Source of the DNA: a virus
Lineage: Monodnaviria > Loebvirae > Hofneiviricota > Faserviricetes > Tubulavirales > Inoviridae
Length of the DNA: 5,101 nt
Strand: one strand, 5' to 3'
IMG/VR virus record: IMGVR_UViG_2698536355_000001
In this document: positions 1 to 5,101 of the stretch, piece after piece
Numbering within the stretch: position 1 is the stretch's first letter
Layout: every line of letters starts with the position of its first letter
Notes under the pieces: generated by a model
Told to the model about the DNA's origin: nothing
The model's database searches: none
What the model saw: the letters and a program-made list of their open reading frames with translations, nothing else
Translations under genes and position numbers: made by a program

Positions 1-75
1 CTGTCGTTCTCAAAATCGGTGGAGCTGCATGACAAGGTCATCGGGCATTATCTGAACATAAAACACTATCAGTAA
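1..75 (+). CDS. insB: IS1 transposase InsB, C-terminal fragment (5'-partial)
   Basis: Frame 1 from position 1 translates LSFSKSVELHDKVIGHYLNIKHYQ*, which is the recalled InsB C-terminus; stop TAA at 73..75. Confidence 0.9.
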   Translation: MSFSKSVELHDKVIGHYLNIKHYQ

Positions 76-90
76 GTTGGAGTCACTACC
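68..90. repeat. IS1 terminal inverted repeat (IRR)
   Basis: The reverse complement of 68..90 is GGTAGTGACTCCAACTTACTGAT, which matches the other IS1 end at 4998..5020 (GGTGATGCTGCCAACTTACTGAT) at most positions. Confidence 0.85.
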
Positions 91-135
91 CAATTTTTCC
101 ATTGTGGAACTGATAGGGTTCAGTTTCCTCTTATT

Positions 136-157
136 AAACCGTGGTTTCCCACGGTTT
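136..157 (-). terminator. Hairpin immediately downstream of the minus-strand membrane-protein gene; possible terminator
   Basis: AAACCGTGG (136..144), loop TTTC, CCACGGTTT (149..157): a perfect 9-bp stem. On the minus strand it lies just 3' of the stop codon at 162..164 and is followed by A/T-rich sequence, but there is no clean U-tract. Confidence 0.3.
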
Positions 158-161
158 GAAA

Positions 162-584
162 TTACCAGTGATATGAATTTCTTCTGTGCCACCAATAAAG
201 CAGCCCGTATCCGATGATAAGAATTCCGAAAAACATCAACGACATTCCCCAGCCAGTTCCATACCACGAAACCATATCATCGAAAACCAATCCACCCGTT
301 TCACGTACTCCGGCAGCTTCCTTAAGGATTGGTTTGAATACCGGAATCAGAAGGGCAATCGCCAGTGGAGCACCCCAGCGAACAAGACCTGTTTCCATTT
401 TGATCCCGAAAAAGATCCCCGCCCCAACAACAAGCAGCCAGACTATCAGGCTAGGCGCAGTTTCCAGAGCTGTTTGCCATTCAACATCGAAAGTTTTCAT
501 TAGCCAGGCAACAACTGCCAGACAGAAAGCAAATATGCCCACGACAACCAGTTCAACGCCGCTTGTTTCGTTATTTCTACTCAT
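162..584 (-). CDS. Small hypothetical inner-membrane protein, 140 aa, about four predicted transmembrane helices; function unknown
   Basis: ORF of 140 aa with four long hydrophobic stretches (about aa 10-28, 43-61, 70-83, 110-130). AAGGA Shine-Dalgarno about 9 nt upstream of the ATG at 584. The plus-strand ORFs over the same DNA are Pro/Ser/Thr/Arg-rich, as expected for antisense of a hydrophobic gene. No recognisable family from memory. Confidence 0.6.
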   Translation of the reverse strand: MSRNNETSGVELVVVGIFAFCLAVVAWLMKTFDVEWQTALETAPSLIVWLLVVGAGIFFGIKMETGLVRWGAPLAIALLIPVFKPILKEAAGVRETGGLVFDDMVSWYGTGWGMSLMFFGILIIGYGLLYWWHRRNSYHW

Positions 585-626
585 CCTTTTGATCCTTTTT
601 CACTGTTCAAAATTCGCGCAATAAAG

Positions 627-655
627 AACGTGCAGTGTTGGTAATACTGCACGTT
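627..655 (-). terminator. Perfect 10-bp stem-loop between the repressor-like gene and the membrane-protein gene; candidate terminator or attenuator
   Basis: AACGTGCAGT (627..636), 9-nt loop, ACTGCACGTT (646..655). On the minus strand it sits 28 nt downstream of the repressor stop (683) and is followed by CTTTATTG. Confidence 0.45.
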
Positions 656-682
656 AGTCTCATTCCTGAGACCGCTAGCTTT

Positions 683-2895: not shown

Positions 2896-3138
2896 ATGAA
2901 AGTCATTTCTGTTATTAAATCTAAAATTGCTGTGGCTTCAACCGCACTTTTTGTTTCTGCAAGTTGTTTTGCTGCTGATGGCGCAACGGGTAGCACTGAC
3001 TATGCAGGTCAGGCAATGGATTCACTGCTGACTCAGGCAAACGATCTTATTGCAAAAGTATGGCCTGCTGTTGTCGCTGTCGTTGGTGCGGGTCTTGCCA
3101 TTCGTTTGTTTAAAAAGTTCTCTTCGAAAGCAGTTTAA
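2896..3138 (+). CDS. gVIII: Major coat protein pVIII precursor, 80 aa, with signal peptide
   Basis: GGAG Shine-Dalgarno 8 nt upstream. N-terminal signal peptide ending ...SASCFA, then an acidic N-terminal segment, a hydrophobic core and a basic C-terminus. The C-terminus IRLFKKFSSKAV matches the recalled IKe/I2-2 coat end and is close to M13 IKLFKKFTSKAS. Confidence 0.92.
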   Translation: MKVISVIKSKIAVASTALFVSASCFAADGATGSTDYAGQAMDSLLTQANDLIAKVWPAVVAVVGAGLAIRLFKKFSSKAV

Positions 3139-3147
3139 AATTCACTC

Positions 3148-3171
3148 AGGGGCACTCGTTGCCCCTTTATT
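3148..3171 (+). terminator. Rho-independent terminator downstream of gene VIII
   Basis: AGGGGCA (3148..3154), loop CTCGT, TGCCCCT (3160..3166), followed by TTATT. A GC-rich 7-bp stem plus T-rich tail at the position of the well-known Ff terminator after gene VIII. Confidence 0.7.
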
Positions 3172-3184
3172 AAAGCGGGTTATT

Positions 3185-4428
3185 ATGAAAAGGAAAATAT
3201 TAATTATTTCCGCTATTCTTATTTCTTCTTTTTCACATGCTGATTCATGGGAAAGCATTACTAAATCTACTTTTCAAAGCTCTGCCTATTCTGAAAGTAA
3301 GCAAATAACCAACCAAGATGGCACTAAACAAACTGTTTATTATATTGATGCAGCTATGCAGGCTTCTGCCTGTCAGGGGGCTAAAGACAGTGCTCAGGGT
3401 GTTTTTACTCAGGTTAAACCAACTTATGAGGGAGTATGGCCTAACTCTGAATTCCGTCTTGTGTTTTCTGACGCTTGTACCTACAGCGACTCTCCGGGCC
3501 AGAAAGATAAATACTGGAATTTAACCGCTTATATTATCGGTGATATTCAGCGTTCTATTCCTGATGAAAAACCCTCCGAGCCTACACCTGAAGAAATTTG
3601 TGAAGCTAAACCTCCTGAAGAAGGTGTATTTAATAATGTCTATCTTATGATGGTGATCGTTATATTTATTATAACGGTTGTGAATATGAGGCCACTGGCG
3701 TCATTGTTTGCCAGGGTGATGGCACTGTTTGTGCGGCGACATGGAAGCCTACCGGAACCGTAGCCGATCCTTCAGATAAGCCTTCTTCTCCTGCTGGCGA
3801 TGGTGGGGATACTGGAGGCGGGGATACGGGGGGTGGTGATACTGGAGGAGGTGATACAGGCGGTGGTAACTCAGGTGGCGGTAACTCAGGTGGTAATGGC
3901 TCAAGTATTACCAAAGGAGATATTCAGTCAGCTATTGAAGGTGCTTCACCTAAAATGGCCAGTGAGATTCATGATAAGTTAACAGAAAAAGACACCTCAT
4001 CTGATGATAAAAAATCGGCTGATGAACAGACTAAAAATAATATAAATCGTCTTGGTGACGCTATAAATAACCTTACTCGCGGAGCCGGACGTTTTGCTGA
4101 TCCTTCTGGCGGTGATTCTCGTTATGGGAAAGGGGATTCCGAATTAGACAGTGCTTCAACATTGGCTGAATCCGAATTAGGAATAGCTAAAGATTCTCAT
4201 GGTGCTTTATGGGAAGCATTCCTGAATAAAGGTGCTATGCTCCCTAGTTTACCTAATGGTAATGGTTGTTCTGAACTTGTTATTTTCCCCGGTGAAATTT
4301 ATCAGATTGATATTGAATGCGATAAATTACTTACTATCAAAGATGCGCTTTCATGGATTTTTTATTGCCTTACCTTCTGGTATGTATTTACGTCTTTAAC
4401 CTCATTACTTCGTAAAGGAGGTGAGTAA
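3185..4428 (+). pseudogene. gIII: Adsorption/minor coat protein pIII (g3p), interrupted by an apparent 1-nt frameshift near 3644..3648
   Basis: ATG at 3185 with signal peptide MKRKILIISAILISSFSHA. Frame 2 reads through ...[18 protein letters not shown] and then becomes hydrophobic nonsense ending at 3763. Frame 1 opens at 3637 and reads [37 protein letters not shown], matching recalled M13 N1 (DRYANYEGCLWNATGVVVCTGDETQCYGTWVPIG), then the Gly-rich linker and a C-terminal domain ending ...IDIECDKLL...[17 protein letters not shown] (M13: IDCDKINL...FMYVFSTFANILRNKES). One extra T in the run at 3645..3646 would restore a single ~414 aa frame. Confidence 0.85.
3796..3900 (+). repeat. In-frame tandem repeats encoding the Gly-rich linker of pIII
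   Basis: About four 15-nt units encoding GGGDT followed by two encoding GGGNS, read directly from frame 1. The minus-strand 'PPVSPPPVS' ORF at 3669..3914 is the antisense of this repeat. Confidence 0.8.
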
Positions 4429-4769
4429 TGCCTTTATTATTAGGTATTCCTGCACTATTGCGTTTTCTTATTGGGCTTGTTCCTTTATTTATTGGCTATG
4501 TGGCAAGCTTCCTCGCACGCCTTGCGACTAAAACAGGATTGATAGCTGTAGCATTAGTTGCATTAATTACAACAACTGTCACTCTCTTAATGCAATATCT
4601 TGCTGAGGTTATGTACAATGGCCTTCCTGCTGATTTTTCACATTTAATTGCATCTGTCTTACCAGACCATTTTCAGGCCTGTGTTAATGTCATTATGATT
4701 ACTCGAATTAGCGTTTTTGTTTTCGATTTAAAACAAAAATTCCTTGATTATGCAAACAAGGTGATTTGA
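4428..4769 (+). CDS. gVI: Minor coat protein pVI, 113 aa
   Basis: MPLLLGIPALLRFLIGL... versus M13 pVI MPVLLGIPLLLRFLGFL..., with a similar length (M13 112 aa) and the motif FDLKQKF versus FDVKQKI. The start overlaps the gene III stop (TAATG). Confidence 0.9.
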   Translation: MPLLLGIPALLRFLIGLVPLFIGYVASFLARLATKTGLIAVALVALITTTVTLLMQYLAEVMYNGLPADFSHLIASVLPDHFQACVNVIMITRISVFVFDLKQKFLDYANKVI

Positions 4770-5024
4770 ATGACGGTTCATGTCGTAACAGGGAAATTAG
4801 GTTCAGGTAAGACACTGGTTAGTGTTGCCAGAATACAGGAAAGACTAGCTAAAGGCTGTCCTGTAGCCACTAATCTAGATATTAAACTACATAATATGCC
4901 CATGGTTGGTCGTTATGCGAAAAAAACACGCGTGATTCGTGTCCCTGACAAACCTTCATTAAATGATCTGCTGGCTATTGGTGTAGGCAATACTTCCGGT
5001 GATGCTGCCAACTTACTGATTTAG
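4770..5024 (+). pseudogene. gI: Assembly protein pI (Zot-like ATPase), truncated after codon 76 by IS1; the ORF reads 8 codons into IS1 before a TAG
   Basis: MTVHVVTGKLGSGKTLVSV... matches the M13 pI N-terminus (MAVYFVTGKLGSGKTLVSV...), Walker A included. Similarity continues to ...LLAIGVGNTS (M13 ...LLAIGRGNDS) and stops at 4997/4998, where the IS1 inverted repeat begins. The tail GDAANLLI* is encoded by IS1. The start follows the gene VI stop directly (TGAATG). Confidence 0.9.
4998..5020. repeat. IS1 terminal inverted repeat (IRL)
   Basis: GGTGATGCTGCCAACTTACTGAT; it pairs with the reverse complement of 68..90. Confidence 0.85.
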
Positions 5025-5051
5025 TGTATGATGGTGTTTTTGAGGTGCTCC

Positions 5052-5101
5052 AGTGGCTTCTGTTTCTATCAGCTGTCCCTCCTGTTCAGCTACTGACGGG
5101 G
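5052..5101 (+). CDS. insA: IS1 InsA, N-terminal fragment (3'-partial, GTG start)
   Basis: GTG at 5052 followed by codons for ASVSISCPSCSATDG, the recalled InsA N-terminus; it runs off the window end. Confidence 0.8.

Follow-up and report, generated by a model that had tools for sequence, protein, structure and literature searches.

Probable IS1-driven erosion of a filamentous dif prophage in a draft Escherichia coli assembly

Results

Gene content of the window

The window, i.e., the whole stretch of 5,101 nucleotides analysed here, is the entire 5101-bp contig CYAM01000110.1 of the short-read draft E. coli assembly GCA_001284805.1, and it comprises roughly half of a filamentous prophage that is already known. 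Handles of the form L001 denote related sequences used for comparison. The window contains the following features:

1..90, + strand: 3' end of IS1 (IS1 679..768), with 100% identity to L003 6817..6906 and to the ends of the IS1 copies of L005 and L014
within 1..90, + strand: last 24 codons of insB' (stop codon 73..75; frame read from the sequence) and, up to position 90, the right terminal inverted repeat
91..98, no strand: CAATTTTT, the 8 bp of target duplicated by the left IS1, right-hand copy (L003 compared with L001)
162..584, - strand: 140-aa hydrophobic phage protein of the attL-side accessory module (ORF)
683..1129, - strand: 148-aa HTH (Cro/CI-type) regulator, presumed phage repressor (PF01381 HTH_3, E=1.4e-9)
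1130..1300, no strand: divergent control region between the repressor and the replication genes (sequence reading)
1301..2353, + strand: gene II, rolling-circle replication initiator, 350 aa (PF05144 Phage_CRI, E=2e-72; PF05155 G2P_X_C, E=7e-33)
2365..2682, + strand: gene V, ssDNA-binding protein, 105 aa (PF17426 Putative_G5P, E=1.6e-51)
2685..2771, + strand: gene VII-like small virion protein, 28 aa (PF19978 Inovirus_G7P_2)
2896..3138, + strand: gene VIII, major coat protein, 80 aa (PF19199 Phage_coatGP8, E=1e-19)
3185..4428, + strand: gene III pseudogene (attachment protein; aligned with the intact gene of L001)
4428..4769, + strand: gene VI-like minor coat protein, 113 aa, DUF5455 (PF17537, E=1e-9)
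4770..4997, + strand: gene I (Zot-type assembly ATPase), first 76 codons, cut by IS1 (PF05707 Zot)
4998..5101, + strand: 5' end of IS1 (IS1 1..104), 100% identical to L003 6139..6242
within 4998..5101, + strand: left terminal inverted repeat and insA start codon (GTG, 5053), also the contig end

The core inovirus genes lie in canonical order (G2P, G5P, G7P, Gp8, G3P, DUF5455, and Zot), with the secretin gene next in the relatives. Pfam matches to all of these families and to an HTH repressor bear out an earlier sequence-only reading, which had taken the DNA between the IS1 pieces to be inoviral. The gene VII-like product is labelled 'tail virion protein G7P-2' in NZ_CP144928.1, and source annotations call the gene VI-like protein 'Head virion protein G6P'. 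A Pfam search of the 140-aa protein returned no match; its gene occupies an unchanged position in every related prophage, that of UTI89 included. The 148-aa regulator matched PF07022 Phage_CI_repr only at the cutoff of that model. In the control region, a 16-nt near-perfect inverted repeat (1175..1190, ATGCTCAGTTCTGACA; 1216..1231, TGTCAGATCTGAGCAT) overlaps a promoter-like site at 1211..1239 and is a putative operator. Furthermore, 3' of gene VIII, a GC-rich hairpin (3149..3165) with TTTATT after it looks like a terminator; it was read by eye and is absent from the list of the promoter/terminator scan, in which the number of sites in the window was not above chance expectation. An Rfam scan of the window gave no match, and a repeat scan detected only the glycine-linker repeats of gene III.

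Two of the phage genes are damaged. A 1-bp deletion between 3642 and 3643 breaks the 414-aa gene III protein into ORFs of 192 and 157 aa, with the PF21443 G3P_pilus-bind domain on the N-terminal fragment, and the same frameshift is present in 108 listed collection blocks. The truncated gene I retains its Walker A motif (GKLGSGKT), and its ORF runs 8 codons into IS1 to a stop at 5024.

The IS1 pieces coincide with the contig ends

IS1 is 768 bp long, has imperfect terminal inverted repeats of ~23 bp and the frames insA and insB', and duplicates 8–9 bp of its target upon simple insertion. Complete 768-bp copies in L003 (6139..6906, the reference copy), L005, and L014 have ends that are 100% identical to the two stubs of the window, and Pfam InsA and DDE_Tnp_IS1 matches were obtained on the full IS1 copies of relatives. 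These exact matches of 90 and 104 nt are far beyond chance. The transposase reads on the + strand in both stubs, the insA start and the insB' stop being in frame. The sequence-only reading had placed the IS1 pieces at 1..90 and 4998..5101, in the same orientation with 4907 bp inside, which is exact to the base, and the inner flanks CAATTTTTC and AATACTTCC agree with those it gave. At the right junction, IS1 and phage seemed to share 7 nt (to 5004), a candidate microhomology; the match came down to 5 nt (TGATG) after two mismatches and was dismissed as chance.

Of 5426 complete E. coli genomes, 5016 matched the stubs, at 74,151 places in all and with a per-genome median of 11. With IS1 this abundant, IS1 at both ends of a short-read contig is what repeat collapse normally yields. 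Moreover, since the window is the whole contig, the stubs mark assembly stops, the copy number and the outer flanks are out of view, and the Tn9-type geometry derives from assembly break points. Hence, of the bracketing by two IS1 copies that had been described, the two junctions are demonstrated, and the presence of two copies is not confirmed, the stubs being contig ends.

One reading of these ends is that they meet in a single IS1, giving a 5675-bp circle or tandem array (IS1 plus the 4907-bp segment), the replicative form of a deleted mini-phage. A contig that starts in the 3' end of IS1 and stops in the 5' end, in the same orientation, is the short-read pattern of a circular IS1 element; genes for the replication initiator and the ssDNA-binding protein are retained in the segment, and related phage replicative forms have been deposited as plasmids of 7.9–9.6 kb (H41 and H44). 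On the other hand, the replication origin of Ff-type phages lies between the secretin gene and gene II, and here the origin may sit in that missing region, from the secretin gene to gene II; no such circle was found in PLSDB. We regard the circle as very unlikely.

The left IS1 resides in a lineage of tandem prophages at dif

Positions 91..4997 of the window are 99.9% identical (1 SNP and 1 deleted base) to an intact 9078-bp prophage in NZ_CP144928.1 (unit 2270046..2279123), which is tandem and adjoins hipBA. The relatives are located between hipA and dif on the E. coli chromosome, and their attP reads GGTGCGCATAA-TGTACGACTCG-TTATGTTGAAA, with the true dif restored on the right. The dif-like attP and the tandem arrangement at the chromosomal dif were observed in the identical-sequence relatives L001, L003, and L004; the att part is missing from the window. 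Further, 91..2690 (the 140-aa gene, repressor, gene II, and gene V) is 91.9% identical to the UTI89 prophage at the same locus (L018).

Including its left IS1 stub, the window is 100% identical over 1..4997 to L003, L005, and L006, in which the left IS1 is complete (768 bp). Compared with the unoccupied site of L001 (GCAGCACAATTTTTCCATTG), the 8-bp duplication CAATTTTT flanks the left IS1 in both tandem units of L003, which reads GCAGCA CAATTTTT [IS1] CAATTTTT CCATTG. In the relatives, this IS1 lies within the phage genome at one copy per tandem unit, and the unit with IS1 measures 9853 bp (9078 − 1 + 768 + 8). The IS1-carrying lineage covers at least 108 collection blocks, and the contigs viewed for the window proteins were those of the 24 blocks with the longest contigs. 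The sequence-only reading had proposed that a matching target duplication at each IS1 copy would mark two simple, independent insertions, and for the left copy the relatives contain one (8 bp, CAATTTTT). Going by these alignments, the left IS1 is an old simple insertion carried by the phage. It had also been held that the window is not one IS1 inserted into a circular phage genome; this stands for the pair of junctions, and the left junction alone is exactly such an insertion.

Other IS1 junctions were seen near this prophage. In the sister contig L005, a like-oriented IS1 abuts the phage with its left end 2.9 kb further right, and the flanks of the other IS1 of this contig do not match; neither of these two unusual junctions was found in complete genomes. 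In a sister assembly, an IS1 lies 8 bp from the dif-like site. L005 shows that IS1 rearrangements around this prophage occur in the same collection.

The IS1–phage–IS1 arrangement was found in a single context

We then considered a composite Tn9-like transposon, in which both IS1 copies would mobilise the phage segment as one unit. The direct IS1 repeats agree with the geometry of Tn9, and the left copy is complete, with both ends, in the relatives. Against this, the duplication is not confined to the outer ends of the pair as in a composite: that of the left IS1 spans its inner and outer flanks in the relatives, so this copy is a solo insertion, and phage DNA goes on outside it in those relatives. 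The interior is also collinear with, and 100% identical to, a prophage at the native dif site. Furthermore, the unit was not found in a second context in E. coli genomes, PLSDB, INPHARED, GTDB, JGI metagenomes, or an exact-protein index, the result that the sequence-only reading had named as fatal to a composite unit. Neither IS1/phage junction was found in the 5426 complete E. coli genomes or in the GTDB species representatives, the right junction was absent from JGI metagenomes, and none of the plasmid and phage records (PLSDB and INPHARED) held most of the interior segment. The composite reading is thus close to refuted for the window, and we give it hardly any probability. Of the three origins proposed previously, independent IS1 events or an adjacent deletion fit these results, and the composite unit is without support.

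The right junction cuts gene I

Gene I is intact in L003, L005, and L006, and its product measures 364 aa in L001 and L003. In an exact-protein index of public assemblies, the fusion protein of truncated Zot and IS1 occurred on one contig only.

A second simple insertion could have produced this junction. According to this explanation, the right IS1 is a new copy that entered gene I and duplicated 8–9 bp there, and the remaining prophage (3' zot, secretin, and att) lies past it on another contig. IS1 copies are numerous in E. coli (see the median of 11 stub matches per genome above) and the element is active, the left IS1 is demonstrably a simple insertion, and direct orientation is expected by chance half the time. 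Such an insertion predicts a reciprocal junction, consisting of the right end of IS1 plus 8–9 bp (A)ATACTTCC plus TATGATGAATCACG, and a retained 3' part of zot that should be annotated as an ORF of 171–296 aa (8 candidates, for target duplications of 7 to 11 bp). In an exact look-up among ~15 billion proteins, 0 of the 8 predicted remnant ORFs were present, an absence that depends on the start-codon choice of the gene caller, and the intact zot used as a control was found. JGI metagenome contigs yielded no match to the predicted reciprocal junction, which this collection is unlikely to include. As the zot remnant is absent from the protein collection, an adjacent deletion is mildly favoured over a second simple insertion, which we consider rather unlikely.

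The order of protein accessions hints at an intact zot (CTT58879.1) on a neighbouring contig, a signal that is ambiguous given that the ids step by ~20 per gene and the assemblies are apparently interleaved. GCA_001284805.1 may thus hold an intact zot on a neighbouring contig; if so, there would be a second phage copy and a more complex history.

Discussion

Proposed history of the prophage

Taken together, the window is probably an in-place dif prophage remnant that underwent an IS1 insertion, a gene III frameshift, and then an IS1 adjacent deletion cutting gene I. The host Xer system would have integrated at dif a filamentous prophage whose regulation/replication module is of the UTI89-prophage type and whose virion/assembly module is related to those of I2-2 and IKe. 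As is visible in the relatives, IS1 transposed into the intergenic space separating the 369-aa and 140-aa genes of the phage with an 8-bp duplication, and the phage genome has kept it, one copy per unit of the tandem arrays. Gene III was inactivated next, by the 1-bp deletion seen here and in the relatives. The last step is confined to this isolate: codon 76 of gene I was fused to the left end of a like-oriented IS1. The junction itself is present in the contig, and its likeliest route would be an IS1-mediated adjacent deletion running leftwards from an IS1 already downstream. Candidates for the source are the IS1 located 8 bp from the dif-like site in the sister assembly and the IS1 of the next tandem unit. 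Such a deletion would take the remainder of gene I together with the secretin gene and the attachment region, and would leave a dead prophage fragment whose bracketing is only apparent, caused by the assembler stopping at IS1.

Implications

The window is a case of ordinary IS-driven prophage decay and no new mobile unit. It leaves the current understanding of IS1 and inoviruses unchanged, and its importance is small. It illustrates that IS1-ended draft contigs can mimic a composite transposon, here where IS1 has been eroding a dif prophage. Modestly useful is the observation of a whole E. coli lineage with an inovirus genome bearing a resident IS1 in each tandem unit, and the same IS1 seems to be driving nested rearrangements around the chromosome dimer-resolution site. 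We see little chance that a closed 5.7-kb element exists, composed of one IS1 and the control, replication, and coat genes of the phage, or that the IS1-carrying phage is still multiplying as a unit and spreading IS1; if true, an IS1-made mini-replicon would excise or replicate off the chromosome, and IS1 would be carried on a phage-derived replicon. A mini-phage circle of this kind would carry genes II and V along with the control region and may replicate or excise alone.

Comparison with known systems

CUS-1 / YpfΦ-type prophages integrate at dif via host Xer and occur in tandem, with two to four copies per array (PMC4266046). The relatives of the window share with CUS-1 / YpfΦ (E. coli O18:K1:H7 and Yersinia pestis) the dif site and the tandem arrangement. 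In the UTI89-type prophage, the virion/assembly genes (coat, gene III, gene VI, gene I, and secretin) are a different set from those found here; compared with it, the window copy has IS1 and a frameshifted gene III, and it lacks all phage sequence after codon 76 of gene I. Lineavirus I22 (I2-2), IKe, and the Erwinia PEar phages arrange their genes in the same order, II–V–VII–VIII–III–VI–I–IV, and have 65–67% nucleotide identity over 34–47% of the segment, and the gene I protein of I2-2 (P0137) is 63% identical. No megablast-level match to the segment was found among the phage records of INPHARED. I2-2, IKe, and the PEar phages have genomes of 6.6–6.9 kb, are non-integrating, and are without the repressor and the accessory module.

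Tn9 (IS1–cat–IS1) moves as a unit, is found in many contexts, and duplicates its target at the outer ends. The window shares with Tn9 two direct IS1 ends around a passenger, whereas its unit was seen once, at the native prophage site, and one of its IS1 copies has an internal duplication. IS1 is also a classic case of adjacent deletions. In IS-mediated adjacent deletion, as generally described, the IS stays and the neighbouring DNA is lost (PMC11708052). The orientation of the IS is kept, one of its ends is fused to new DNA, and no target duplication arises; the right junction of the window may be a product of this kind.

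Gene content and defects of the prophage

What the window contains is left over from a filamentous prophage of a known, dif-integrating type and has two or three defects. IS1 has acted on it twice, once in an old simple insertion and once in an event private to this isolate, and it is seen only as far as the points where a draft assembly breaks. Its inovirus genes form a compact set, listed here.

Genes in the window (coordinates, strand, product, evidence)
162..584, minus strand, hydrophobic protein of 140 aa (ORF listing)
683..1129, minus strand, HTH regulator (presumed repressor) of 148 aa (ORF listing and Pfam)
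1301..2353, plus strand, gene II (Pfam G2P N-terminal domain, E=2e-72; C-terminal domain, E=7e-33)
2365..2682, plus strand, gene V (Pfam G5P, E=1.6e-51)
2685..2771, plus strand, G7P-like gene of 28 aa (ORF listing and Pfam)
2896..3138, plus strand, major coat gene (Pfam Gp8, E=1e-19)
3185..3763 and 3955..4428, plus strand, gene III in two pieces (Pfam G3P pilus-binding domain, E=2e-25)
4428..4769, plus strand, gene VI-like DUF5455 gene (Pfam, E=1e-9)
4770..4997, plus strand, first 76 codons of Zot-type gene I (Pfam Zot, E=6e-11)

Gene III is frameshifted and gene I is truncated, and the secretin and the att region are probably lost. Where the repressor gene and gene II diverge, the intergenic DNA contains a 16-nt near-perfect inverted repeat (1175..1190, ATGCTCAGTTCTGACA; 1216..1231, TGTCAGATCTGAGCAT), which overlaps a promoter-like site at 1211..1239 and is probably the operator. 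Part of the repressor gene (866..1000, 135 bp) is a DNA-binding domain cassette in common with many plasmids of ~41-57 kb in E. coli, Salmonella and Shigella (H45-H67), whose HTH regulator gene matches it at 90-97% identity. The attachment protein owes its glycine-rich linker (GGDTGG/GGNSGG) to four 15-nt head-to-tail repeats in gene III (3802..3876).

The segment between the IS1 ends (91..4997) is 99.9% identical to the prophage of E. coli SCPM-O-B-12142 (NZ_CP144928.1), which is a complete 9078-bp unit, present in tandem and directly beside hipBA. Just two differences separate them: a C/T SNP at 3068 and one T absent between 3642 and 3643. Through the SNP, residue 58 in the major coat protein's hydrophobic segment is Ala in the window and Val in NZ_CP144928.1; the Val58 form is commoner (297 contigs versus 81 for Ala58). 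The lost base (TT to T in GTCTATTCTTATG) shifts the reading frame of the attachment protein, leaving ORFs of 192 aa and 157 aa in place of 414 aa. It is not a sequencing error, because identical fragments recur, always with the IS1-carrying phage, on 82 and 67 contigs and also in 108 collection blocks. Past gene I, which is whole (364 aa) in every relative, the full phage unit continues with a secretin gene, an 82-aa ORF, the dif-like site and a 369-aa gene on the minus strand.

IS1 ends of the contig

The window ends at 1..90 and 4998..5101 are 100% identical to positions 679..768 and 1..104, respectively, of complete 768-bp IS1 copies in related loci. Their direct orientation follows from the plus-strand position of both the insB' stop (73..75) and the insA start (5053). 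The 3' stub variant was matched at ≥99% in only 121 records, versus 5285 for the 5' stub, so the element has the look of an uncommon mosaic IS1.

When searched by exact sequence, the 84-aa ORF that runs from zot into IS1 matched just one record, CYAM01000110.1 of assembly GCA_001284805.1, whose 5101 bp are the same as the window end to end; the fusion is named by its source as E. coli protein CTT59075.1. The window is therefore a whole contig, and the stubs mark where short-read assembly met a repeat. IS1-ended contigs are routine, since the stubs match complete E. coli genomes at 74,151 places: 5016 of the 5426 genomes have such matches, and the median genome has 11. Read against the sequence and the complete IS1 copies, the coordinates, direct orientation and inner flanking 9-mers of the sequence-only reading are all correct. 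Of its further claim of two bracketing IS1 copies, two IS1/phage junctions are real; a second copy, full-length elements and their outer flanks are presumptive, as the stubs are contig ends.

An intact Zot, CTT58879.1, precedes CTT59075.1 by 196 ids. It belongs to a run, CTT58754-CTT58896, comprising HTH (58754), gene II (58773), Val58 coat (58816), zot (58879) and secretin (58896), and the run of the window, CTT58919-CTT59075, follows directly, from HTH (58919) to the truncated zot (59075). Because ids climb by ~20 per gene, it seems that more than one assembly was being numbered at a time. The first run could come from the contig that precedes this one in its assembly, and so from a second, intact phage copy in the strain, as the neat succession of the two id ranges suggests; however, a de Bruijn assembler should have merged two near-identical copies. 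It could equally come from another isolate, which agrees with that expected collapse but less well with the tidy back-to-back ranges. Another identical secretin is CTT51309.1.

An older simple insertion of the left IS1

The frameshifted gene III fragment and the 140-aa protein, used as look-up queries, retrieved the complete chromosome GCA_977064715.1 (loci L003 and L004), the sister draft contig CYBP01000067.1 (L005), from the same submission series as that of the window, and several read-archive assemblies (L006-L008). Window positions 1..4997 are 100% identical to all of them. In L003, the left IS1 is complete, lies between the 369-aa and 140-aa genes and has CAATTTTT on either side, where the unoccupied site of the IS1-free phage is GCAGCACAATTTTTCCATTG; the left copy thus has its own matching target duplication, the comparison that the sequence-only reading had proposed. 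This IS1 is present in each of the two tandem units of L003 and L004, and the unit carrying it measures 9853 bp (9078 − 1 + 768 + 8). Once IS1 is set aside, nothing but that SNP and that 1-bp deletion distinguishes the full unit from the IS1-free phage. As a duplication-flanked complete copy is present in both tandem units, the left IS1 is an ordinary simple insertion into the phage genome, older than this isolate. The IMG/VR contig L019 (8021 bp) starts with an identical 90-nt stub and ends at the attP fork, the typical contig shape of a tandem lysogen. A 100% identical variant of the IS1 is found, in strains whose phage is free of it, inside the neighbouring ECSE_1600-type autotransporter gene ~5 kb from hipB (L014 18746..19513; L016 20082..20423); this gene is intact in the complete L003 chromosome, where the phage carries the IS1.

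L003 (IS1 at 6139..6906 and 15992..16759) and L004 represent a two-unit tandem array in a complete chromosome. Each unit holds IS1 with the 8-bp duplication, the SNP and the frameshift, so the array arose after the phage had gained IS1 and lost gene III. It was consequently made by recombination or re-integration of the replicative form, not by infection. The attL and inter-unit sites are GGTGCGCATAA-TGTACGACTCG-TTATGTTGAAA (5750 in L001, the IS1-free locus of NZ_CP144928.1; 4880 and 14733 in L003; 14733 in L004). True dif (GGTGCGCATAATGTATATTATGTTAAAT) is at the right end only, which places the crossover in or beside the XerC arm.

Adjacent deletion or insertion at the right junction

The fusion of gene I at codon 76 to the IS1 left end was seen in the contig of the window only, and the right junction was absent from 5426 complete E. 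coli genomes, GTDB representatives and metagenomes. Adjacent deletions are a textbook activity of IS1. Such a deletion would have spread leftwards from an IS1 already downstream, leaving no zot remnant; it would retain IS1 orientation and, in a single-copy lysogen, give exactly a stub-segment-stub contig. A new simple insertion into gene I also fits, with the 3' 288 zot codons on a neighbouring contig behind the IS1 right end. We modelled that remnant contig for target duplications of 7 to 11 bp, yielding eight possible remnant ORFs of 124 to 296 aa. None of the eight was found by exact sequence among ~15 billion proteins, against 124 contigs for the intact Zot control. In L005, a second IS1 left end of the same orientation forms the other end of the contig; it joins the phage 2.9 kb rightward of the window's break point and 8 bp short of the dif-like site. 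With such a downstream IS1 in the collection and none of the predicted zot remnants found, an IS1-mediated adjacent deletion is moderately favoured over a new simple insertion.

The phage-borne IS1 of L005 (6100..6940) has cybB-side DNA (…CACACTGTACGGCA) on its left in place of the 369-aa gene and phage on the other side, with no matching duplication, and the orientation of the hrpA-cybB block relative to dif is opposite to normal. The arrangement points to a scaffolding error or to IS1 having inverted ~100 kb across the terminus. Both unusual L005 junctions (6100..6940 and 14660..14828) were found in no complete E. coli genome. Adjacent deletions and missing target duplications are treated in general terms in PMC11708052.

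Composite transposon and circle

A composite unit resembling Tn9 (IS1-cat-IS1), among the origins first proposed, failed every test run. In relatives, phage DNA continues beyond the outer end of the left IS1, which is flanked by a duplication of its own; the interior runs in the same order as the prophage at its native site; and an IS1-phage-IS1 unit in a second context was not found in complete E. coli genomes, plasmids, GTDB representatives, metagenomes or by exact look-up. Nor was a plasmid or phage record with most of the interior segment found. Recombination between direct IS1 copies into a 5675-bp circle carrying genes II and V, or a single-IS1 circle, is very improbable, even though the contig has the shape that a single-IS1 circle would give. 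The window is a new instance of a familiar process; the original observation was accurate and its significance overestimated.

Comparison with known filamentous phages

Among phage records there was no close match to the window. Related filamentous phage genomes have been deposited as small E. coli or Salmonella 'plasmids' (NZ_CP128883.1, 9565 bp; NZ_CP140410.1, 7938 bp; NZ_CP132684.1; NZ_CP141085.1), which are probably replicative forms, and pieces of the phage also occur within large Klebsiella and E. coli plasmids. The I2-2, IKe and Erwinia PEar phages are distant kin of the virion/assembly module (65-67% nucleotide identity over 34-47% of the segment), with 63% protein identity between the gene I products of I2-2 and the phage described here. 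The UTI89 prophage, at the same dif locus, shares the left module (91..2690; accessory, repressor and replication genes) at 91.9% identity, whereas prophages of this type (L009, L010, L013 and UTI89 itself, L018) carry instead an unrelated coat, adsorption and assembly set with a 570-aa adsorption protein, DUF2523 and a shorter Zot. The phage is modular, with a replication side common to the UTI89 type and a swapped virion side. As at the loci of the relatives, Xer/dif integration and tandem arrays have been described for CUS-1 and YpfΦ (PMC4266046).
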